DNA of 63,986 nucleotides, the filler included, from Sanchytrium tribonematis (taxonomy: Eukaryota): the NCBI GenBank assembly GCA_018985235.1. It is 9 parts of 9 records of this genome, joined end to end, with 100 filler letters (N's around TTAATTAATTAA, not from the genome) between each part and the next. Parts side by side here need not be neighbours in the genome. Positions count along the whole stretch, not along the records: positions 14,656 to 21,876 come from JADGIG010000455.1; 8 more parts are not named here. One strand, given 5' to 3'. The notes beneath the pieces were generated by a model. It was not told the DNA's origin. It worked only from the letters and a program-made list of their open reading frames with translations, and did not search any database. The position numbers and the translations under genes are program-made. The stretch's first letter is position 1. Every line of letters begins with the position of its first letter. Positions 7,231 to 28,362 of the stretch are shown here, piece by piece.

Positions 7231-7330
7231 NNNNNNNNNNNNNNNNNNNNNNNNNNNNNNNNNNNNNNNNNNNNTTAATTAATTAANNNNNNNNNNNNNN
7301 NNNNNNNNNNNNNNNNNNNNNNNNNNNNNN
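7231..7330. other. Artificial contig spacer
   Basis: 44 N + TTAATTAATTAA (stops in all frames) + 44 N; identical at eight positions. Confidence 0.97.
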
Positions 7331-14655: not shown

Positions 14656-14706
14656 AGATTTGCCATTACGGGTATTTCCAATGGCGTGCAAATTCTTAAA
14701 AAAAGG

Positions 14707-16062
14707 TCATTCACCCAAACCTTTTAATTGTCTGCAAATTTCCTTAAGTAAGCCGGTTGACTCTCCAGGATTGCCTTCATCATCCACTAATTCAACCAGA
14801 CCAACAACATCTGGCAATTTTAATTTAGATGCAATTTGTTGCACAATATCACGGACTTGTTTTTCTTTGCTTAATTCTAGATTCAAAACATTGTAGCTGG
14901 CAACCCGAAATCCTTGCTTCAGTTTTTCAAGACTTTCTTGCCTATAATCAGAAGATCTTTTCAATGAAACAGAACCATCGACATAAAGGCCATATGAACC
15001 TCGCTCGTAAATGATAGTTCCGTAGATATCCTTTAGTTCATCACCTACACTAAATTTACCTAAACTACCCCGTTTTGTTCCTTTTCTGTAAACTTGGATT
15101 TGTTCCGGCTGAACATCAAATAAACCATTATCCTGCTTGACTATAGTCAAGGATCCTTGAGAATTGATATTTGTAGCCATACCTTTGCCGTAGACGTGAA
15201 TGCCATCATATTTAAATGCTTGACTCACCACTGGGTTTTCTAGTCTGACGTACATTCCTTCCAAAGATTCCCAGTAGTCCATTCCTTTTCTAAGTTCGAG
15301 GAGAATAGGCATTTGGGTTTGATAAATGTTGATTTGCTGTTGTGCATTTGTGAATGGATCTGCAACATAAGCAACATCTTTAGGCATACTTTCAGTAAAT
15401 GCATTTGTGATCATGATCTTACTTTTATCATTTCCCAATACATTAAACTGATGCATATTGACAATAGTCATTGTAAGTCCTGATCGTTCTGAATCAAAAT
15501 AGTGGGCAATATACTTTTCAAATACATAACCTTGGACTCGAACAAGGTCTCCTTTGCGCACCACAGCTGTGGGTGCATTTATAAAGATACCTGCAGACAT
15601 TCCTCTAACCTGATGTAGGTTACTATAAGATGAAGGATCTGCTTGGATAAAAAATCCCTTCCAATTGGCCAACTTTGTGACTTGAGAAACATAGCCATCA
15701 ACTTGGACAAATTGATCTTGGTTTCGATAAAATGGAGACTTGTGTGTAATTCCTTGTAGCTCCATGATACTGCGAGCTTGGTATTTACCACCATCGGTCA
15801 GCCTTGGTTGTTTTGGAGCAGGCTGCACCTCCTCGTCTCCAGATTCTCCCTCGCTCAATGCAGCTATTGTCCTCTTCTTCCCAGACAACTTAGCTGGCTT
15901 AGTCTCTTCGTCTCCAGATTCTGATTCACTCAATAAGACTCTTGCTCGTTTCTTACCAGACGACCGACCTGGTCTAACCGATTGACTTGATTCTAAAGGA
16001 TCGTAATCAGAGTCGGATGACAGATCTATGACTGCAAATAACAACAATGCAACAAACAACAT
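14707..16062 (-). CDS. Secreted bacterial-type nuclease homologue: OB folds plus the start of an endonuclease/exonuclease/phosphatase (EEP) domain; C-terminally truncated
   Basis: IMELQG..HKSP, GFFIQ, SAGIFI, GDLVRVQGYVFE, YWESLEGMYV, VASYNVLNL, PDVVGLVE. The ORF stops about 50 nt before the contig end, before the EEP domain is complete. Confidence 0.75.
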   Translation of the reverse strand: MLFVALLLFAVIDLSSDSDYDPLESSQSVRPGRSSGKKRARVLLSESESGDEETKPAKLSGKKRTIAALSEGESGDEEVQPAPKQPRLTDGGKYQARSIMELQGITHKSPFYRNQDQFVQVDGYVSQVTKLANWKGFFIQADPSSYSNLHQVRGMSAGIFINAPTAVVRKGDLVRVQGYVFEKYIAHYFDSERSGLTMTIVNMHQFNVLGNDKSKIMITNAFTESMPKDVAYVADPFTNAQQQINIYQTQMPILLELRKGMDYWESLEGMYVRLENPVVSQAFKYDGIHVYGKGMATNINSQGSLTIVKQDNGLFDVQPEQIQVYRKGTKRGSLGKFSVGDELKDIYGTIIYERGSYGLYVDGSVSLKRSSDYRQESLEKLKQGFRVASYNVLNLELSKEKQVRDIVQQIASKLKLPDVVGLVELVDDEGNPGESTGLLKEICRQLKGLGE

Positions 16063-16876
16063 TTTTTAAAATACTAATCAGAGAGTCATTTTATACTCTG
16101 TATTCGTAATGGGTATCCAATGGGCAAAGAAATGATTATCCACGTGAATTATATTCTGACGAAAAGTGGTAACATTAACACATCTGAGATTCTCAAACTC
16201 ATTTGATTTGCTGGATAAAAAATATTGGTTGTATTATGGTGTGCTATGACATCAATGGTGTGATTCAGATGGCTGAAAGATGATCATTGAATTTCAGCAT
16301 CATTGGGAACACGCTCTGTGAATGTTTTGAAAACGAACGCCTTTAAATTTAAAACTTGTCAAGAAATTTTCAAGCCAGTGTACCCGTTCATACAGAGATT
16401 TACAACGTGAAAACTAGACTAGGGTGATTTCAAGTCAATTAAGTAGACGATATAATTTTAATCAAGCAAATGATTTCAAGTTGTTTTACTAGAAAAATAA
16501 CGTTGAAGTCTTGTCTTTTGTTGAGATCCCTTGGCAAGTACTTTTCTACCATCTGCTTTAAGGTTTACGTTGAAACAAAAGAGTTTCAATCACTGTAGTG
16601 TCACTTTCTAATAGTTTATATTGATTTCATTGGTACAGATATAATCACTCACCACTAATCGAGTCGTTTCAGAGTGTTGTAAATACTTTCATTCTTCTTT
16701 TCCAACAAGAAGATCTCTGCACAATGATAATAAATGATTCGTGAAGCATTGATTTTATTTCAAGTTCTAGACAAGATCCAAAGTTGTTCTCCCTTAAAAG
16801 CATTTCTTTCAAGTCAGTTTTAAGTAGGGATTCAAAAATTGAAAAAAGTGTATAAGAACTAAAAGACAAAGAGACA

Positions 16877-18703
16877 TTGATACTAAAGGCTTTTAATATT
16901 GAAAATCTTATTGAATTAGAATGGATCAAAGAAGGAATTGAGTTGAAAATTGAAAATATCGGATTTAAGCAATTAAGAGACGTTCTAATGGATGCTTGTC
17001 ATTCTGCATCAAAAGGAGATATTACTTATGATACTTCTAGATATGAGTTGATTTACCCAGATTTGATGCCATCTTGTTTTGTCAAGATAGATAATATCAA
17101 GGATTACTGTGTAGGTTTCAAGACCATCAAGTTATACAAGGGTGCAATTAATAGCTCTATCCATCTCAAATGCCACATATGCTCACCTGAGAACCTTACA
17201 GCTTTACGTTCTGCTGTAAAAGACAAAGGCCACATTGTGAATGCAAAAATTGTTCAAGCACACTCTCATTTTGGTGAATCCAATATTTCGTTCCCAAGAT
17301 TGCCACACATCAACGTAAATGAGACATCGACTTTAGTAGAGGGTCTTCATTATGCAGATTTTTCAGATCCTGATTTATATTTGAAGTACGTGCAAGAATT
17401 GGCTGAATCATTTGTAAAAGAGTTAAACAAGAGTTCTTTACATCTAATCCGTTTAAATGTGGAGAGATTCTACGATTCGATTTATACACATGCATGGACT
17501 TGGCTAACCACGAGCAAAGTTTTTCAAAATTTTTTAAAAAAAGAACGGCCAAATTTATTTGAGCAATCTTTTGCCGCCCTAAAAGCAGGAGTAAACTACG
17601 GAATTGTGTGTGGACCAATGGTTACCCATGACTTAGCAGAAGATTTTCTTGTTTTTATTACCAAGGAGATTCTTTCCAGCTTTAAATTGGTCGAACCTTT
17701 ACAAGAGATCAAAATAATTAGAAGACTAGACACATTTAATATACAGACTTCTTGTGATGCCTCAATTGTACGCAATGTAGTAGAAGATGTATTGGATGAG
17801 TTCAATTTAAGTCTTCGTCGACAAAGAAACGCACCAGATAACAAGGTCCAATTGAAGGAATACTTGAACTGTAGTGAGATCGAGAAATACAGTCCTGGAT
17901 TTATTGACGAATATGATTCTGATCTTGTGGCCTTATTAATGTACAAGAAAGCCAGAGAATCCAACTACAACAAAGAGGATGTTGAATTTGTTGTAGATAT
18001 CATAGCGAGGGTGGCTGAAATCATCCCGATTGTATGCGAAATACTAGTTGATGATTATCAATCCTTTAAATATGCCAAAGTTCGTCCAAATATGGATTTG
18101 CTATTATTAAGGCTGTTACAACGATATATCCAGATTGATTGTAATTCATTGCAGTATATGCATCTAATATGGGCAGCAATGTGTTGTGACATTCATAAAG
18201 ACGACAAATTGTTTAAAAAATCGCCGAATAAGATGCCAAGTCTTCTACTGCATGATATAATGACTAAAACAAGAAACGAGAAGATAACTGATATATCTAC
18301 ACTAGACTTGATGTATAAGAAGGATCTGAATGAGTTTTATACTAGCCAATTATGTAATATTATGCTTCACTCATTAAAGCTGCATAGATTGTTAAAAGTA
18401 GCTGTTATTGGAAGTAAAAACGCTGAATTGTTTGCAGATCACTTTCAAAAAGCAGCCAAATGTACAGTTGATGTATTGGAAGCATCAAGAGATATTAAAA
18501 AGTATGATTATGTGATTAAACAAACAGATGGTGCATCATTTACCAGAAATAAAGATGGAATCTTTGTTGACTTTAATAAATGGAAAGAGGCTGTGGAATT
18601 GAAGACATTTCAAGAGTTTATAAAAGAGCTACGAGGTACTTGTTATCGAGGAATCTTATGCAAATGGCAAATCAGCAATACATCCCATCCATCCGCTGTT
18701 TAG
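16877..18703 (+). CDS. Abi/DRT-type (SIYTH class) reverse-transcriptase-like protein with altered catalytic motifs; first ATG at 16988
   Basis: LNVERFYDSIYTHAWTW, YGIVCGPMVTHDLAEDFL, RRLDTF at the YxDD position, then a helical region containing YMHLIWAA. Confidence 0.72.
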   Translation: MILKAFNIENLIELEWIKEGIELKIENIGFKQLRDVLMDACHSASKGDITYDTSRYELIYPDLMPSCFVKIDNIKDYCVGFKTIKLYKGAINSSIHLKCHICSPENLTALRSAVKDKGHIVNAKIVQAHSHFGESNISFPRLPHINVNETSTLVEGLHYADFSDPDLYLKYVQELAESFVKELNKSSLHLIRLNVERFYDSIYTHAWTWLTTSKVFQNFLKKERPNLFEQSFAALKAGVNYGIVCGPMVTHDLAEDFLVFITKEILSSFKLVEPLQEIKIIRRLDTFNIQTSCDASIVRNVVEDVLDEFNLSLRRQRNAPDNKVQLKEYLNCSEIEKYSPGFIDEYDSDLVALLMYKKARESNYNKEDVEFVVDIIARVAEIIPIVCEILVDDYQSFKYAKVRPNMDLLLLRLLQRYIQIDCNSLQYMHLIWAAMCCDIHKDDKLFKKSPNKMPSLLLHDIMTKTRNEKITDISTLDLMYKKDLNEFYTSQLCNIMLHSLKLHRLLKVAVIGSKNAELFADHFQKAAKCTVDVLEASRDIKKYDYVIKQTDGASFTRNKDGIFVDFNKWKEAVELKTFQEFIKELRGTCYRGILCKWQISNTSHPSAV

Positions 18704-18763
18704 ATTTTGACTATTAGACATCAAGTTTGGTGAGAAAGGATTTTTACTCAGGACACGATTTTA

Positions 18764-20449
18764 TTAAATTTCAACAATTTCAATTTCCTTCTGCAGTTTT
18801 ATACTTGACTTCAGCTCTTCAAAGTTATTGTTGGTTTTTGTGCCTTTGATATTATAGAAATAATAGTTTTTTGGATCTTCTTTCGTTGGTGGTTTGCTAA
18901 AAGCATCTGTTACATCTCGATTACTTACAATAATCACTAAGGAACTGTGATTTTTTTTCAAATGTTCAATAGCCACCCTTTTAGCATCATTTAATTTCTC
19001 ATGCCAAACCAAACGACATTTCAAATTTTCAAATAAAGCATATTTCTGATTCATATCCATATCCAAATCTGTAAACACATGTACCTCACACATCATTGTC
19101 AAATCACTGTTTTTAATCAATTGCGTAGAAACATACTCAATTTCCTTAGTACTAGCTACTTTCATTTCAATCTTAATGATATTTTGTTTTCTCTTTGCAT
19201 ATAATTGTCTTGTATATTCAGATAACTGAAATATGGCTTTTTTATCAAACATTTTCGTATCAATATCCATGATAGTACACATCCAACAAATAGATAAATA
19301 CTGGATACTTTGAGAACTTGCTTTTGTAAATGCTTTGGCTAATGCTTTACCAAATGCAATGCAATCAGATCCTGCACAATAATCAGTTAATAAACCTGAT
19401 ATAATTTGTGGCAATATTTCACAAGATTGAAGAATATGTTGGACCATTATTTGAATAGAATGATTGTCATAAGATTTCCTATAAATTTGAAACTGTGCTA
19501 GTTTGATCAAATGAGCATCAAATGATTTTAAATATTGTTTTGTCGTGATATTCTCTAATTTCTTATCATAATCTGAAATAAATTCAAGACAACTTGGATT
19601 TACATCTTTAATTTTACCATGATTGATCATTAATCTATACTCATTCAATACAACATCTAAAGTTTCTAAAATATCATCTTTTTCAACAGAATCAGGATAC
19701 ATGATTACGATATTATCCATCATTCGACATATTTCTATTGACTGACCATGATTTTCTGGATCACAATGGTTTTGTCGTAATGCATTTAATAGGGGTCCAT
19801 CCATCAATTCAAAGAATAATTCAGCAATATCATGAGTGACTAGGGCGCCACAGGATAATCCATATGTCTCATTTCCTTTAAGTTGCCTTATATGCTTCTC
19901 AAATCCATCTAAAAGTCGTTCTTTTTGTAAATCTTTTCCACTTAATGTCCAAATAATAGCATGCGTATAAACAGACGGATAAAACGATTTGATATTGACG
20001 TATAATCTTTTACAAGATTTCTCACAATCTGGTTCCAAGTAAATTCCAGATCGGATGCCTTTTAACATAATTATTAGATTTTCTAAATATTTTGGAGAAG
20101 AAGCATCCATTGGAGTCATTGATTTTAACAATTTAGAATATTGAGCGTCTGCAACATAGTGTTCTGGTATTCTTGGAAACCTTTCTATTTGTGGGATTTT
20201 TTTTAAATGTCGAGCAATCCTGTTGTAATGACTCTTGAATGAATTGATCAAGTTTTGTAAATTTTTTGGACTTAATATCGTGCAATATAAAAACTCATGA
20301 TCACTCCAATTATCTTTGAATAGCCTTATTGTCATAAAATCATCCATTTCATGCATGTCCTCTGTCAAATTTGGTTGAAACAAAGAAGGCATGCTATCTG
20401 GAAGACTTGAATCAAATTGTTGAACATTTTTTTGGCCATTACTAGTCAC
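18764..20449 (-). CDS. Second Abi/DRT-type reverse-transcriptase-like protein, a divergent paralogue convergent with the first; start uncertain
   Basis: VNIKSFYPSVYTHAIIW, GNETYGLSCGALVTHDIAELFFELMD, RMMDNI at the YxDD position, YLSICWMC in the helical region. Confidence 0.72.
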   Translation of the reverse strand: MTSNGQKNVQQFDSSLPDSMPSLFQPNLTEDMHEMDDFMTIRLFKDNWSDHEFLYCTILSPKNLQNLINSFKSHYNRIARHLKKIPQIERFPRIPEHYVADAQYSKLLKSMTPMDASSPKYLENLIIMLKGIRSGIYLEPDCEKSCKRLYVNIKSFYPSVYTHAIIWTLSGKDLQKERLLDGFEKHIRQLKGNETYGLSCGALVTHDIAELFFELMDGPLLNALRQNHCDPENHGQSIEICRMMDNIVIMYPDSVEKDDILETLDVVLNEYRLMINHGKIKDVNPSCLEFISDYDKKLENITTKQYLKSFDAHLIKLAQFQIYRKSYDNHSIQIMVQHILQSCEILPQIISGLLTDYCAGSDCIAFGKALAKAFTKASSQSIQYLSICWMCTIMDIDTKMFDKKAIFQLSEYTRQLYAKRKQNIIKIEMKVASTKEIEYVSTQLIKNSDLTMMCEVHVFTDLDMDMNQKYALFENLKCRLVWHEKLNDAKRVAIEHLKKNHSSLVIIVSNRDVTDAFSKPPTKEDPKNYYFYNIKGTKTNNNFEELKSSIKLQKEIEIVEI

Positions 20450-20824
20450 TCGACTTAAGAGAATATCTATACAAGATTCAATTCACTTTCTATTTTACTT
20501 ATAGCCTGAAGAATACCTTTTTTAGCAGAATCTAGGGCATTATCATAAGCAAAATCTTGTTTTGAAGTAAAGGCTTCGACATGTTTTATCTATTTTGGAG
20601 TTCAAATTAGAAATTTTCAAAGTCGCTCTAATTTAAGCCTTGTTGATAATATAGAAGTAATCAATTAATTTTGTTTGCAATTATCCCATTGGCAGCACTG
20701 AGTAATTAAAAGCGTGAAAACCCAAACTTTTAAAATGCAAAAAGGAAATTAAAGGAAATGCTTGGACCAATCAGGAAATTCTTCAAGCGGTTAAATCAAA
20801 ACATTGCACCAATCTCCAAATTGA

Positions 20825-21876
20825 ATGATTTCTGCAGAGAATTTCAGATTACGAGGAAACGAAGCCTTTAATGACGGTAATTTTGACTTGGCTATTAGAA
20901 TATACTCTGATGGGATCGAAAAATTTCCTTCAGACTGTAGATTAAGGCTTAATCGAATGGCTTCGTTTATGAGACTTCGTTTATACGGACTAGCAGTGAA
21001 TGATGGCGACGATTTATTAGAAATTGAACCTAGAAATGAAAAAGCCATAATTAGGGTAATCAAATGCTTTTATTTTTTAAGGGAATATGACATTTGTAAA
21101 AATTTGATTGAAAATCATAGACCGATTTTGATAAGAAACATTGAAGAAATCAATTCTATAATGATCCAGATTCCTATGCGTCTTAAAGAAGCCGAAGGTG
21201 ATTACAATTTTACCAGAATGTTTGCAGCAAGTCAAACTGATATATACCTAGAAAATCATCTTTTTGAGGGCCCTATTGAAATGAGAGATACTTCAAATGG
21301 TCTTGGCATCTTTGTAACTCAAAATATACCTTTTGGTACTTTGATTATGGCAGACAAAGCATTGGCATACTCTGAAAATAATGACATAATGCCACTTTTG
21401 GATAGTGCAATATTAGCCAGTACTGATACCGCAATCAGACAAAGAATGAATCTTCTTCGCAATCCGGGTGAAGACATCCACTTTACTGATGACATCCTCA
21501 ACATTGTTGGTAAATATGAACGTTCTTGTAATGAGTATCAAATTAATAGCTCTGCTTTATATGGGAAAGTCAGTCTTATAAATCATTCCTGTATTCCTAA
21601 TACAGTCTCGTTTTGTATAGGCGATTTTATATTCATCAGAGCGGGAAAAGATTTGAAAGCGGATGAAGAACTTTACATATCTTACATTAGTCCACTTGCA
21701 CCATACTGGTATCGAAAACAGGTACTAGGGTCATTAGGAGTCAATTGCCGGTGTAAGCTGTGTGTTTTTGATTCCAAGTTATCAAAATTGCTGCCTGAAA
21801 TCGAAATAATTAGGGACAAGACCTCATCATATAACAAGAAGCTTTTGCTTGACTACATTCCCAAAATGGAGTCTTT
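20825..21876 (+). CDS. TPR + SET domain protein (SMYD-like), 3' end cut by contig end
   Basis: RGNEAFNDGNFDLAIRIYSDGI TPR; GLGIFVTQNIPFGT, INHSCIPN, EELYISY and post-SET CRCKLC. Confidence 0.85.
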
Positions 21877-21976
21877 NNNNNNNNNNNNNNNNNNNNNNNN
21901 NNNNNNNNNNNNNNNNNNNNTTAATTAATTAANNNNNNNNNNNNNNNNNNNNNNNNNNNNNNNNNNNNNNNNNNNN
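21877..21976. other. Artificial contig spacer
   Basis: N44-TTAATTAATTAA-N44. Confidence 0.97.
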
Positions 21977-22883
21977 AGATCAAGCACCCGTATTAAAAGC
22001 AGTGTTTGGCAGAAAATACAAAAATAGACCAATACATTGTAATATCTGTAATAATCATCACGATTATGTGAATCAATTGTATAAATGCTACAGAAATTGC
22101 TTTCGAAATCCACCTGAACCGCTTTGCTCAAAAACAACAAATTTGCAAACTGTTTCACTCCCTGAATCATGGAATTTGCCGTTGGAAAATTATCAAAATG
22201 CACTGACTAGTGAAGACACACACGTGTACTGTGATGCATCATATCATGAGCATCCAACCACCCAATCCACAGCAGGCATTGTCGTATTAACAAACTCAAT
22301 TCAAATTATCAAATCCTACAAATTAGAGAAATTAGCAATAGATGATTCAACCAGAGCTGAAATTGGCTCATTGTGTTGTGCATTAAAAGAAATACAAGCA
22401 ATTCCCAGTATATTAGGAAAGAATATAACATTTTACAGTGATAATACTGCAGCCATTGATGCATTAGAATATGCTCAAAACGATGATATCCCACTCTATA
22501 ATATTTATTGTTGTGATTTAATTGCACAGATCTATCATTTATTGACACCGAATATCTCATTTGAATATACGAAAGCACATGATGAGCAAAATAGAGAAAG
22601 TATAAATCATGCCGCTGATTATTTGACGCATTTCCATAGACAATCACCATTTGCGCCGTTACAATTGACGATTGCAGATACATCCAAGAAATTAAGAAAG
22701 AGAAAAGCAAAAAATGATGTGTTGCGACTGCAACATGTGAAAGAATCCAATCTAACAAAGTATCGCAAAATTCGTATTTTAGATGGTATACATGAAAAAT
22801 GTAGAATTACTGCTGCTCCTACCTAGTGTAGATAGCTTACATGAGCCAAATTCGTCTCAATAAATCATTAAAAAAAAAAAAAA
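21977..22883 (+). mobile_element. 3' end of a non-LTR retrotransposon (LINE) with C-terminal RNase H and poly(A) tail
   Basis: CNIC...C remnant, then VYCDAS, STRAE, YSDN, KAH...NHAAD; stop at 22826, AATAAA at 22859, A14 at 22870-22883. Confidence 0.7.
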
Positions 22884-23422: not shown

Positions 23423-23848
23423 TCAAATGCAACCTGCTACGCTTGATGAACTCAATCTGGAAGCACATTGTGGATCTGATCTATATTCTTCTGATTGACA
23501 TGTCCCAACCAAGTTTCCACCAGATTGAACTTGATCTAAAATGCAATAAGGAATAGATTGTTGGCAATTTAAATATTGCTTATTGATATAGCCACATCTT
23601 TGGCCATAAGTGGGGTCTGATTGAGGCTGATTGTTAGATGGAAATGGGCATGCGACACTGGATTGTGTAAATAATGGACGACATTGTCCTTTAAATGCAG
23701 AAAATTGCGCGCAAATGCCTGATGAATTACACACTTCATCTTCACTACACATTTGAATTCCATAGGATGTAAAACCACATGTTGTAGTAGTTGTGGATAA
23801 TGAAAATGTTTGTAGAAGAAAGTGGATCATTTTTGAAAATTGGGGCAT
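23423..23848 (-). CDS. Secreted protein with two hevein/CBM18-like Cys repeats
   Basis: CG...C...CNSSGIC...CRP...C and a second CG...C...YC...GTC unit; likely start MIHFLL. Confidence 0.65.
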   Translation of the reverse strand: MPQFSKMIHFLLQTFSLSTTTTTCGFTSYGIQMCSEDEVCNSSGICAQFSAFKGQCRPLFTQSSVACPFPSNNQPQSDPTYGQRCGYINKQYLNCQQSIPYCILDQVQSGGNLVGTCQSEEYRSDPQCASRLSSSSVAGCI

Positions 23849-24045
23849 TGGATTTTAAATCGAGTCCGAATTTCTGAGAATGTCACTGATTGGATGATTT
23901 AAGATTAAAATATGCTGTGATTGGAGAATGAAATTGACACAGACTTGCTGAACGGGTTCTTGTGCACGGTAGTCAAGCACCTAGAAGCTATTGATTAGAT
24001 ATCACATCAATTCAAATCAACAAGATTGTAAAATTGAATTTATTT

Positions 24046-24546
24046 TTAACATTTCCCATTTTTGCTATATTTTGTTTTACAAACATACCATTTGGAATCG
24101 TAGTTAGCCTGACAAAGACCCTGATTTTTTGTATCTGATTTTCTATCCACAGTACAATATGGATACTTTTCAGTCTCACATGTTTTGGTGAAATTGTGAT
24201 TCCATGCTTTAAATTCCCCACATGTTTTATCATAGCATGTACCAGTCGCACTAAAATCTGGTTGACATGCTCCATTTAATAATGTATCATAATTGCAAAG
24301 ACCTTCATTGTTGCAATATTTCCCAATTGAGCACGTGATTGTCTTTTTACCAATCACTCCACATTTATCAACGCAGCCACTTCCAAAACTGTATTTTGGT
24401 TGACAAGTAGCCAAATGGGCATCTGAATTGCCACATTCACCAGATGAACTACAATATTTGTAATCCGGCGTGCACTTTTTATATTTTCCATTTTTACCAC
24501 AACTAGGCAATTTTGCAAATAATAATGAAATGAGAATGTAGATCAT
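24046..24546 (-). CDS. Secreted protein with three hevein/CBM18-like Cys repeats
   Basis: CGKNG..KC..YCSSSGECG...CQP...C pattern repeated three times. Confidence 0.7.
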   Translation of the reverse strand: MIYILISLLFAKLPSCGKNGKYKKCTPDYKYCSSSGECGNSDAHLATCQPKYSFGSGCVDKCGVIGKKTITCSIGKYCNNEGLCNYDTLLNGACQPDFSATGTCYDKTCGEFKAWNHNFTKTCETEKYPYCTVDRKSDTKNQGLCQANYDSKWYVCKTKYSKNGKC

Positions 24547-24820
24547 GTGAGATTTGGATGTGATCTTGTTAAATAGTGATTTGTTAATTATTAGAAGATT
24601 TGATTGGTTACAAACACCGTGCCAAGATGCTGTGATTGGGGCAATCTAACAAGCAGTTCTTGCTGTTAAATAGATGGGGGAGTATTGATCATCGGGGCTT
24701 GGGATTTGTGAAATTGAAAAAGATTGAAATGAGCTGAGAAAACACGTGTCATGACCAATTAAATAAATGTAATTTATTTCAAACTATGAAGCATCAGAAA
24801 TATTTGAGCATAAATCTGAA

Positions 24821-25312
24821 TTACTGTATTGTTGATTGCCTATTTTCAGGTACAATGTCCTTGTATGTTCCATAATAAGATGCGCCCTTTTCTGCTGGGA
24901 TACAATGAGGTTTAACAAGAGGACAGCTCTCAGTGGACCCTAATTCATCATAAGGACCACATGATAGTGAATAACCACATTCACTATCTGGTCCACTTAG
25001 ATCCGCATCGCAACCTGAAATCCCACTTGATCCACAAGCACCTGCACTGCAAATTCGATCACCTGAACAGAATCTTTTGATTCCATCTTTATCACCACAT
25101 GTGTCATTGTCTTGACATGATGATGTACTTGCGCGTGGTTGACAATATCTGCTAAACCAGTCACTGGTTCTGCAATAACCCCAAATGCTACAATATCCGT
25201 CTGCACAAATGGCATTGTTGTTTTGCCACCCACATCGTTCTCCTTCGTTGACATATTCCAATTCTTCTGCTTTCCTTCTTGCAAATAACATTGCGATGAA
25301 AATCATTGCCAT
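24821..25312 (-). CDS. Secreted protein with hevein/CBM18-like repeats; last repeat degenerate
   Basis: CGWQNNNAICADGYCSIWGYC...YCQP...C keeps the SxWGY chitin-binding motif. Confidence 0.7.
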   Translation of the reverse strand: MAMIFIAMLFARRKAEELEYVNEGERCGWQNNNAICADGYCSIWGYCRTSDWFSRYCQPRASTSSCQDNDTCGDKDGIKRFCSGDRICSAGACGSSGISGCDADLSGPDSECGYSLSCGPYDELGSTESCPLVKPHCIPAEKGASYYGTYKDIVPENRQSTIQ

Positions 25313-26401: not shown

Positions 26402-28362
26402 ATGGTTTTATATTCTGCTCACTGGATTTCAAATTGTCTATCTTCTGTGAGAGAACTTTACATTCAAAATTTATTAAGAGATCCGTCTAATATTGATTTA
26501 GATGTCAAAACTATAAATATAAGAACTGCCAATATAAAGCAGGCACTTGAAAGTCACAATCTTAAAAGGGTAATTGATGATAAGAAAAATTATAAATCTA
26601 AAGATGATTTCTTATTTGATGAGTCATATAATCATAGTGAACACTTATCTATTATAAAATATTGTTGGAATCATTTCAAATATCCATCAGTTGGTCTAAA
26701 TATCTTGCTGATCATTTACTTGCCCATGCTGGTTTACATCGTGGGGATGAAAGAAGGGAATTCAAATTGAGTAATTGTCGTATTTTGGATACTAAAATTG
26801 ATAATTTGGATGTAAAAGCTCTGATTATAGTCATTGAGCGGTCAAAAACAAATAATTACAAAAGAATTGAACATTCAAGTTTTATTCGCCATATGAATCC
26901 AATCGAATGCCCTGTTGGCGCCATGGCGCTGTTTCTTTTTTTTAGATTTAATTTCACAGACGAAAACTTCCCCAATGTTCATGTCAAGCAAGATTGGTAC
27001 GATATTTTTCTTTTGTTTGGTGATAAAGGCATTAAATCTAAGCTAGATTATTCATCACATTTAAAAACTGTAACAAAAATCCTGAAAGAATGTAATATTG
27101 ATAGTGGGAAATGCAAAACTCATTTGCAGAGGAAATCAGGTGTTAGAATGCTTGATGAAATGAATTGCAGGGAAGACCATGTTGATAGACTGGGTGGATG
27201 GAAACACGATAAGAAGACCACCAGCTATTTACTAAATATTGCTACTGAAGCTATGAAATTAATGAGTGGAGGAAGTAAAATTCAAGGCAGTTATCAAATT
27301 TATAGAGACGCATTCATCCCATCACTTAATTTGCAACAATTGGTCTTCCCTGGCGCATTCAAATATGATTTGTCGGATCCAATGCTAGAAAAGACTGCTG
27401 TAAATTTCATAAACTTGATGAAATATTTAGCAATAGTAGTACTTCAGGATGCAGCAATACTTATAAATAATGAGGATATTAAGTCACATGCAATTTTTAA
27501 ATGTGATTTATTCAGATCAAACGAATTTATCGAGTTTTCAAAATTGGTAAATGACCATCATAGAACAATGAGTAGCCGCCCACTGAATGAAGTAAGCACA
27601 TTAGCAGAGGTATCACCTGATATCTGTCAAATGCTGTCTAGCCAGCATCATTATTTTAGCAGGATTTTATCAGAACAGGCAGAATTAAAAAATCAAATAT
27701 TTCAATTAAATCAGCAACTGCATCAGTTTTACTCATTTCAGATATGTCAACCTATTTTAGCATCGTTTGTTAATCCCCAAATGTCTATCAATCATCAAAA
27801 TTACCACCCAAATACACCAAATTATTCCCCTCAAATTAATCCCAAATTTGTCTCCATTCAGTCAAGTAACCTTTCTACTGTGTCATCTCTGCGTAATTAT
27901 GTAAGACAAGCATCCTATCAGTCAACTTCTAGCCAAAAGTCATCACCAGATTCTGCAATTAGCAACATAAACCAATCTCATTTGGAAGAAGAAAAACACG
28001 CATATAGACTCAATAACGAGACCAAATGTCTCAAAAAGCTATGTGTGGAATACTATGATGGTACCCTACAATGCCCTGCATATAGTTCCTTAGAGAAACA
28101 ATTTAAATCTGAATGGCGGCGAGGTTCTAATAGTTCTGACTCTGCTAAAAATAGACAATTTTGGAAGGGAAGATTAGATTGCATCAAAGAAATAGAACGT
28201 CTAGAAGTATCTACTGGTCTATCTCGACATGCTGTGGTTGAAATGATAGTCAAATTTAAAGACGGTATTGAAATTGCTAAAAAATCAGCAACTATCCCAT
28301 GGCTCATTAAATATATGAAAAATAACAAAGATAAAAGCACTAGGACCTATGGATTTGCTTAA
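26402..28362 (+). mobile_element. Crypton-type tyrosine recombinase (Ndc10-II-like plus GCR1_C domains); 5'-truncated with one frameshift
   Basis: LHRGDE, RHMNPIECPVGAMALFLFFRF, KTHLQR, RLGGW, SYL; C-terminal EYYDG...LEKQFKSEWR. The two ORFs join by one missing A at ~26700 (VGL-KYLADH). Confidence 0.8.

Follow-up and report, generated by a model that had tools for sequence, protein, structure and literature searches.

A duplicated protein family of sanchytrid fungi derived from Class 1 defence reverse transcriptases, with a remodelled polymerase site and a retained His/acid pair

Can a bacterial defence reverse transcriptase (RT) settle in a eukaryotic genome after its residues for DNA synthesis have changed, and what would it then do? 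This question is raised by two neighbouring genes, here called A and B, of Sanchytrium tribonematis (assembly GCA_018985235.1), which lie in the 63,986-nt stretch of joined contigs that we analysed (the window, to which all positions refer). Gene A (P0001; 16988..18703, plus strand) encodes 571 aa and gene B (P0002; 18764..20392, minus strand) encodes 542 aa, both counted from the first ATG, and the two genes converge on a 60-nt intergenic spacer (18704..18763). The proteins are paralogues with 26% identity across 398 aa (E 8e-25). They share the motif FPRLP in A or FPRIP in B, FYDSIYTHAWTW in A or FYPSVYTHAIIW in B, YGIVCGPMVTHDLAE in A or YGLSCGALVTHDIAE in B, and YMHLIWAAMCCDI in A or YLSICWMCTIMDI in B, and their motif C reads RRLDT in A and RMMDN in B. 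A degenerate pattern derived from the motifs of A and B matches twice in the window, whereas none of 100 shuffles reaches two matches. The open reading frames (ORFs), the motif search and the shuffles thus confirm the convergent pair, 60 nt apart and with all the listed motifs, that a first-pass annotation of this DNA had described.

Both proteins are related to the Class 1 abortive infection (Abi) and defence-associated reverse transcriptase (DRT) proteins. PADLOC profiles (Drt6, AbiK, AbiP2, Drt3b and Drt4) match A with a best E of 3e-14 and B with a best E of 3e-19, and a profile of the 11-sequence family described below finds Abi-P2 (2e-21) and AbiK (1.5e-18), as well as DRT6, Drt3b and DRT4, in the PDB, with these structures far above the group II intron RTs. 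The best single-sequence PDB match is Drt3b (E 7.5e-11). The Class 1 signature (Y-T/S-H-x-x-x-W, G-x-x-x-G, E and R) is present in an RT-like fingers/palm domain, and in the models an alpha-helical (alphaRep) domain is predicted at the C-terminal side in place of the thumb. The AlphaFold2 models have a predicted local distance difference test (pLDDT) score of 84 for A and 69 for B. By VIA fold comparison they match Abi-P2, DRT6 and AbiK with Z of 15-16 and a root-mean-square deviation of 4.4-5.7 over 321-388 residues, and Foldseek matches the model of gene B to DRT4 with an E of 6e-11. In gene A, helices are predicted at residues 310-462 with pLDDT mostly above 85, and the VIA alignments to the same three structures extend to residue ~467-493. 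The ESM Atlas returns bacterial RT clusters only, at 0.87, with template modelling (TM) scores of 0.38-0.41.

The two proteins fall short of the curated limits for Drt3b and Drt4. On NCBIfam Drt4, B reaches 40.9 bits against a curated cut-off of 450 and A has no match at E 0.01; on NCBIfam Drt3b the pair reaches 29 and 58 bits against a cut-off of 350, and none of the six relatives tested is assigned to a PADLOC family at 1e-60. The intact catalytic triad (motif-A Asp plus YxDD) that also belongs to the Class 1 definition is absent from A and B. The profiles and the predicted fold therefore bear out the earlier proposal of Class 1 Abi/DRT homologues with an RT palm and a helical domain; its suggestion of an undescribed system is narrowed, since the members derive from the known Class 1 DRT family. 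Our confidence is high that both genes are genuine DRT derivatives, eukaryotic and under selection.

Relatives were collected mostly by an HMMER scan of 1.84 billion representative proteins, from which the best 150 of 239 matches were used. Together with other protein searches it gave 11 distinct family members (word-seeded searches found few relatives), the near-identical P0005 and the partial P0108 and P0162 being counted within their clusters. The members are 18-51% identical. Three are labelled Amoeboradix gromovi and lie on three different contigs, that genome holding at least three divergent paralogues, and six more are ENA assembly records. In a tree of 243 core columns and 59 rows (11 family, 48 bacterial chosen among those with a family label), the family forms one clade with 100/100 support on a long stem, and the clade is kept when the motif columns are removed (Shimodaira-Hasegawa-like approximate likelihood ratio test 99, 52 rows). 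Gene A pairs with P0004 and gene B with P0007, indicating that the duplication is old; the duplicated family proposed from the pair is thus real, and A and B each have a closer orthologue elsewhere. The free tree weakly favours Drt3b as the sister group (88), and an approximately unbiased test does not reject the grouping of the family with DRT4-like rows (p 0.48). According to the literature, sanchytrids parasitize algae, evolve fast and have small genomes of low GC content (PMC8371127).

No family member was found in a GTDB motif-pattern scan of TAT-ACN codons, whose four matches are all due to chance, or in scans of IMG/VR viral sequences, where one match is a phage DRT with YVDD. A metagenome scan gave three loci, all ordinary DRTs (HIDD and YVDD in L001/L002, YYDD in L003). 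Because the trees have no outgroup, horizontal transfer is read from this distribution. Of the horizontal acquisition claimed earlier, the bacterial-DRT homology and the eukaryotic setting stand, while the transfer itself is suggested by the distribution and the sister group is weakly placed. The searches also returned an intact Class 1 DRT between replication and terminase genes on a 178-kb IMG/VR contig (L004, 4680-6248), and three bacterial-type Class 1 RTs (P0066, P0080 and P0089) that have no PADLOC family at 1e-60 and a motif C of R-A/H-x-D-D.

The polymerase site of the family is remodelled, as seen when DRT4 numbering is mapped by alignment onto the 11 family members and 129 bacterial Class 1 rows. 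R75, which is reported to position the dNTP in DRT4 (PMC12783706), is present in 0/10 family members (one row does not have the region) versus 114/129 bacterial rows. The motif-A residue D149, for which a role as Mg ligand is given for DRT3b (PMC13174585) and DRT4 (10.64898/2026.10.21.760695), is Asp in all 129 bacterial rows; in the family it is Asp in 3/11, Asn in 7/11 and Ser in 1/11. The three members that keep it (P0010, P0078 and P0161) suggest a stepwise loss. The position of Y238 is aromatic in none of the 11 members versus 121/129 bacterial rows, and D241 is replaced by Thr or Asn throughout the family (bacterial rows: Asp 124/129, Asn 5/129). N271 is kept in seven members and K274 in six, with both present in B and neither in A, and D240 is kept in 11/11. 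In gene A, Asn157 (17456..17458, plus strand) replaces the catalytic Asp of motif A, and R-R-L-D-T (17720..17734, plus strand) replaces R-Y-x-D-D of motif C; gene B has N133 and R-M-M-D-N at residues 223-227.

Three other residues, in gene B numbering, are invariant in the family and rare in its bacterial relatives: K172 (11/11 versus 5/129), H187 (11/11 versus 2/129) and D188 (11/11 versus 0/129). The His-Asp pair corresponds to His214-Asp215 in gene A (17627..17632, plus strand), and this His is aligned to the Drt3b Arg (R241; R253 in 9z6y) that is reported to read the -1 base (PMC13174585). H187 thus likely faces the old pocket, as judged from the alignment. The earlier note had already seen the change of motif-A Asp to Asn in both proteins and of YxDD to RLDT or MMDN, which we confirm. 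The conserved remodelled site that it proposed holds for the residue losses and the new Lys, His and Asp, which are family-wide, but one subfamily keeps the motif-A Asp. Likewise, in its new CG..VTHD motif the Gly and the His-Asp are invariant across the 11 members, but the Cys is Thr in three of them and Asn in P0102. Five bacterial Class 1 proteins (P0023, P0054, P0100, P0113 and P0146, the first two of them Drt3b by PADLOC) have Y-V/I-D-N for YxDD and are otherwise intact in their polymerase residues, indicating that some of them may not need the second Asp. The conserved Tyr before motif A was considered as a priming residue and rejected; it is not invariant and its alignment is unreliable.

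A second set of positions can also be compared with DRT4. DRT4 is reported to carry an RNase site formed by H160 and D192 at the trimer-trimer interface (10.64898/2026.10.21.760695, crediting Rong et al., Science 2026). The equivalents are His168 and Glu192 in A (17489..17563, plus strand) and His144 and Glu165 in B, and across the alignment of the family the two positions hold His in 11/11 and Asp or Glu in 11/11. This retained His/acid pair, which the first-pass annotation had overlooked, would give a more specific mechanism.

The genes also appear to belong to the host. The window is gene-dense and eukaryotic with 33% GC, and A and B fall within the spread of 18 further genes of the window in codon usage and in GC content at third codon positions (codon usage r of 0.91 and 0.83; 0.44-0.91 for those genes themselves). 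In run X1 (DNA reads), one contig joins gene B to the eukaryotic TPR-SET gene beside it (19942-21876) and another spans the A-B spacer, no X1 piece covering the whole stretch. The eukaryotic setting claimed at the outset is borne out by this bridge, by the host-like composition and by the lack of any member in the GTDB and IMG/VR scans. Selection was read from the differences between the window and X1, which is itself possibly the source of the window; such differences could reflect allelic variation or copies that are almost identical. All 33 differences listed for gene B comprise 16 synonymous and 17 non-synonymous ones, with pN/pS of 0.31 (p 0.001) and no stop or indel. Counts for gene A and the neighbouring nuclease gene come from 40 of 92 differences; among those listed, the nuclease has a ratio of synonymous to non-synonymous of 7:0. 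The intact frames and the purifying selection on gene B speak against neutral decay, which the earlier note had named as part of a refuting outcome. Gene B is ~2% polymorphic, above the listed parts of gene A. At 19700-19822, at least two X1 haplotypes depart from the window sequence, and in one X1 contig the final codons of gene A, together with the spacer, are exchanged for other sequence (window 18667-18746).

We propose, tentatively and at somewhat less than an even chance, that A and B are domesticated, likely polymerase-dead DRTs, oligomeric, in which a rebuilt ligand-binding pocket gates an inherited RNase. The ancestor would have been a bacterial Class 1 defence RT that a sanchytrid-like fungus likely gained by horizontal transfer, and its DNA polymerase activity has likely been lost, to judge from the residues. 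A and B would be two old paralogues that likely act as nucleic-acid or nucleotide sensors. Their assembly as trimers or hexamers may have been kept, by analogy with the oligomeric state reported for AbiK, Abi-P2 and DRT4 (PMC9508834). A nucleotide or a nucleic-acid end would be bound by K172, H187, D188, R223 and D226 in the rebuilt pocket, its binding would switch on the DRT4-type RNase site, and the role of the system might be antiviral. In its boldest form, which we consider improbable, a fungal lineage took up an antiphage DRT from bacteria, dropped the writing of DNA and kept the RNA-cutting effector, the former polymerase pocket now serving as receptor, yielding a eukaryotic innate-immune RNase on an RT fold whose paralogues may co-assemble.

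Several observations weigh against the proposed model. The second dyad residue is Glu, not Asp, in 7/11 members including A and B, and all 129 bacterial Class 1 rows have the His/Asp pair, among them AbiK, Abi-P2 and Drt3b, three proteins for which we found no report of RNase activity; the pair may thus be structural and not diagnostic of DRT4. Activation of the DRT4 RNase is reported to need single-stranded DNA (DNA synthesis), a phage single-stranded DNA-binding protein and dGTP (10.64898/2026.10.27.754916), so a dead polymerase could not supply the trigger. The retention of D240 in all members and of D149 in three, together with the YxDN of 5/129 bacterial relatives, indicates that some catalysis is possible. 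Drt3b is the weakly favoured sister in the free tree, and selection on gene A rests on seven variants (4:3 synonymous to non-synonymous, p 0.06). Because the models were built on mostly bacterial-DRT alignments, the fold match is partly circular, and the independent part of the case is the sequence evidence.

The same residues can be read in other ways. The old polymerase pocket could be a new catalytic site made of K172, H187, D188, R223 and D226, with the motif-A Asp added in one subfamily, for nucleotidyl transfer, pyrophosphorolysis or hydrolysis. An invariant His-Asp, Lys, Arg and Asp across 11 proteins at 18-51% identity resembles catalytic conservation, and D240 is never lost while P0010, P0078 and P0161 keep D149; the loss of the dNTP-positioning Arg in 10/10, of the motif-A Asp in 8/11 and of both N271 and K274 in gene A, where the erosion of these two is complete, makes such new chemistry fairly unlikely in our judgement. 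If the His/acid pair is only structural, the proteins could instead be wholly non-catalytic scaffolds or nucleic-acid-binding proteins with a cellular role outside defence, which the universal presence of the pair in Class 1 DRTs, its change to Glu in the family, the extra C-terminal alpha/beta domain described below and the closer orthologues of A and B elsewhere, as for stable cellular genes, would all suit. We regard this as unlikely, for the several divergent paralogues per genome and the moderate constraint (0.31, compared with 7:0 for the nuclease) fit conflict genes at least equally. It is very improbable that the contig is non-host DNA (a co-assembled bacterium, symbiont or virus), a chimera or a set of decaying relics. 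The contig is only 7.2 kb long, its left end looks chimeric, and six relatives are assembly records; set against this are the X1 contig that links gene B to the TPR-SET gene, the matching GC and codon usage, the paralogues on three A. gromovi contigs, the empty GTDB pattern and IMG/VR scans and the intact frames under purifying selection.

Compared with known systems, the family would correspond to no more than the effector half of DRT4 (UG15), a hexameric protein-primed polymerase with a guanosine-specific RNase. It shares the RT-like and alpha-helical architecture, the Y-x-H-x-x-x-W motif and, by alignment, the dyad position as His/Glu or His/Asp; it differs from DRT4 by the lack of R75, Y238, D241 and mostly D149, by the new Lys, His and Asp, by the extra C-terminal domain, and by its eukaryotic host and several paralogues, and the priming Tyr125 of DRT4 is poorly alignable. 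AbiK, Abi-P2 and DRT6, Class 1 UG/Abi template-independent polymerases, are the best profile and fold matches, but they are active and prokaryotic with an intact D...YxDD, and the family scores far below their members. Drt3b (UG8), a protein-templated poly(dCdA) polymerase, is the top single-sequence PDB match and the weak sister in one tree, and the invariant His falls at its base-reading Arg; A and B are below its NCBIfam cut-off and have lost the catalytic residues. We saw neither the Drt3a (UG3) partner nor the noncoding RNA on the contig, and both genes are Class 1-like. The rvt genes (UG37) are cellular RT-related genes of eukaryotes and some bacteria, likewise non-mobile and kept in eukaryote chromosomes (PMC9226505), but rvt proteins are active and protein-priming with an N-terminal coiled coil, whereas A and B match Class 1 Abi/DRT profiles; since rvt is outside the tree, the separation rests on these profile matches.

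Class 1 Abi/DRT proteins have so far been treated as prokaryotic. The main UG/Abi survey is reported to have dropped eukaryotic sequences before analysis (PMC9226505), and the accessible text of a DRT10-telomerase preprint makes no mention of fungal Class 1 homologues (PMC12632851). In the open literature covered, judged from titles and abstracts, no account of these proteins from sanchytrids or fungi came to light. Since the family is eukaryotic, under selection, present as several paralogues and devoid of the polymerase residues, it amounts to a natural separation-of-function experiment. With it one can ask if the His/Asp pair universal among Class 1 DRTs serves generally as an RNase site, and if an effector can act independently of DNA synthesis. 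It would also be a further example of a eukaryote domesticating a defence gene from bacteria, here in a genome that is described as much reduced.

The ends of both proteins have further features. Upstream of gene A an in-frame open extension without ATG (16856..16987, plus strand) looks by eye like the N-terminus of the orthologue P0004, and upstream of gene B an open extension (20393..20482, minus strand) carries a conserved P-D-x-M-P motif. Because the frames are open and homologous 5' of the first ATG, that ATG need not be the true start; in gene A the true start may lie in an upstream exon or at a non-ATG codon. Intron models for the starts of both genes gave many weak candidates and none that is compelling. 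At its other end, gene A has an extra C-terminal alpha/beta domain (residues ~467-550; 18386..18637, plus strand; block-mean pLDDT 88-92) without a match in Pfam or the PDB. A BRCT identity for it is unsupported, the HHalign probability being 0.3% (E 0.21) when 31 bacterial BRCT rows, one or more of them mis-extracted, are used, and up to 0.2% for control windows.

The true context of the gene pair is limited to one contig of 7221 bp (14656..21876), because spacers of N occur every ~7.3 kb. These N runs surround a six-frame stop linker at 7231, 14556, 21877, 29193, 36496, 43794, 51072 and 58339, and the window consists of size-sorted ~7.3-kb contigs joined end to end, neighbourhoods across the joints being artificial. 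On one side of the pair lies a nuclease gene (14707..16062, minus strand; ExeM/NucH-like, E 4.9e-12, below the curated cut-off) with a hydrophobic N-terminus, and on the other the eukaryotic TPR-SET (SMYD-like) gene (20825..21876, plus strand). Both flank A and B as annotated earlier, but the TPR-SET gene is cut by the contig end and the nuclease gene probably so. Run X1 has loose ends at 14714/14719 (window 14656-14719), so that this contig end may be chimeric and the nuclease gene probably has a continuation other than the one in the window. We found nothing on the contig that ties this nuclease to A and B. Its hydrophobic leader is of eukaryotic style, it contains an acidic/basic repeat, and it is possibly another bacterial acquisition.

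Genes A and B and the other ORFs of the contig contain no gag, integrase, endonuclease or RNase H Pfam domain, and the repeat scan found short, low-identity repeats only and no terminal repeats, in agreement with the first-pass annotation. A retroelement identity (long terminal repeat element, long interspersed nuclear element or group II intron) is not supported, given the lack of such domains and repeats. An Rfam scan gave no match. On the next contig, an ORF at 21933-22826 (plus strand) has a weak RVT_3 (RNase H-like) match (E 0.043) and is unlinked to A and B. Elsewhere in the window, a long ORF at 26641-28362 (plus strand) encodes what we take, by eye, to be a tyrosine-recombinase (Crypton-like) transposon protein, and three small cysteine-rich secreted-type proteins, chitin-binding-like by eye, are encoded in tandem at 23423-25312 (minus strand).

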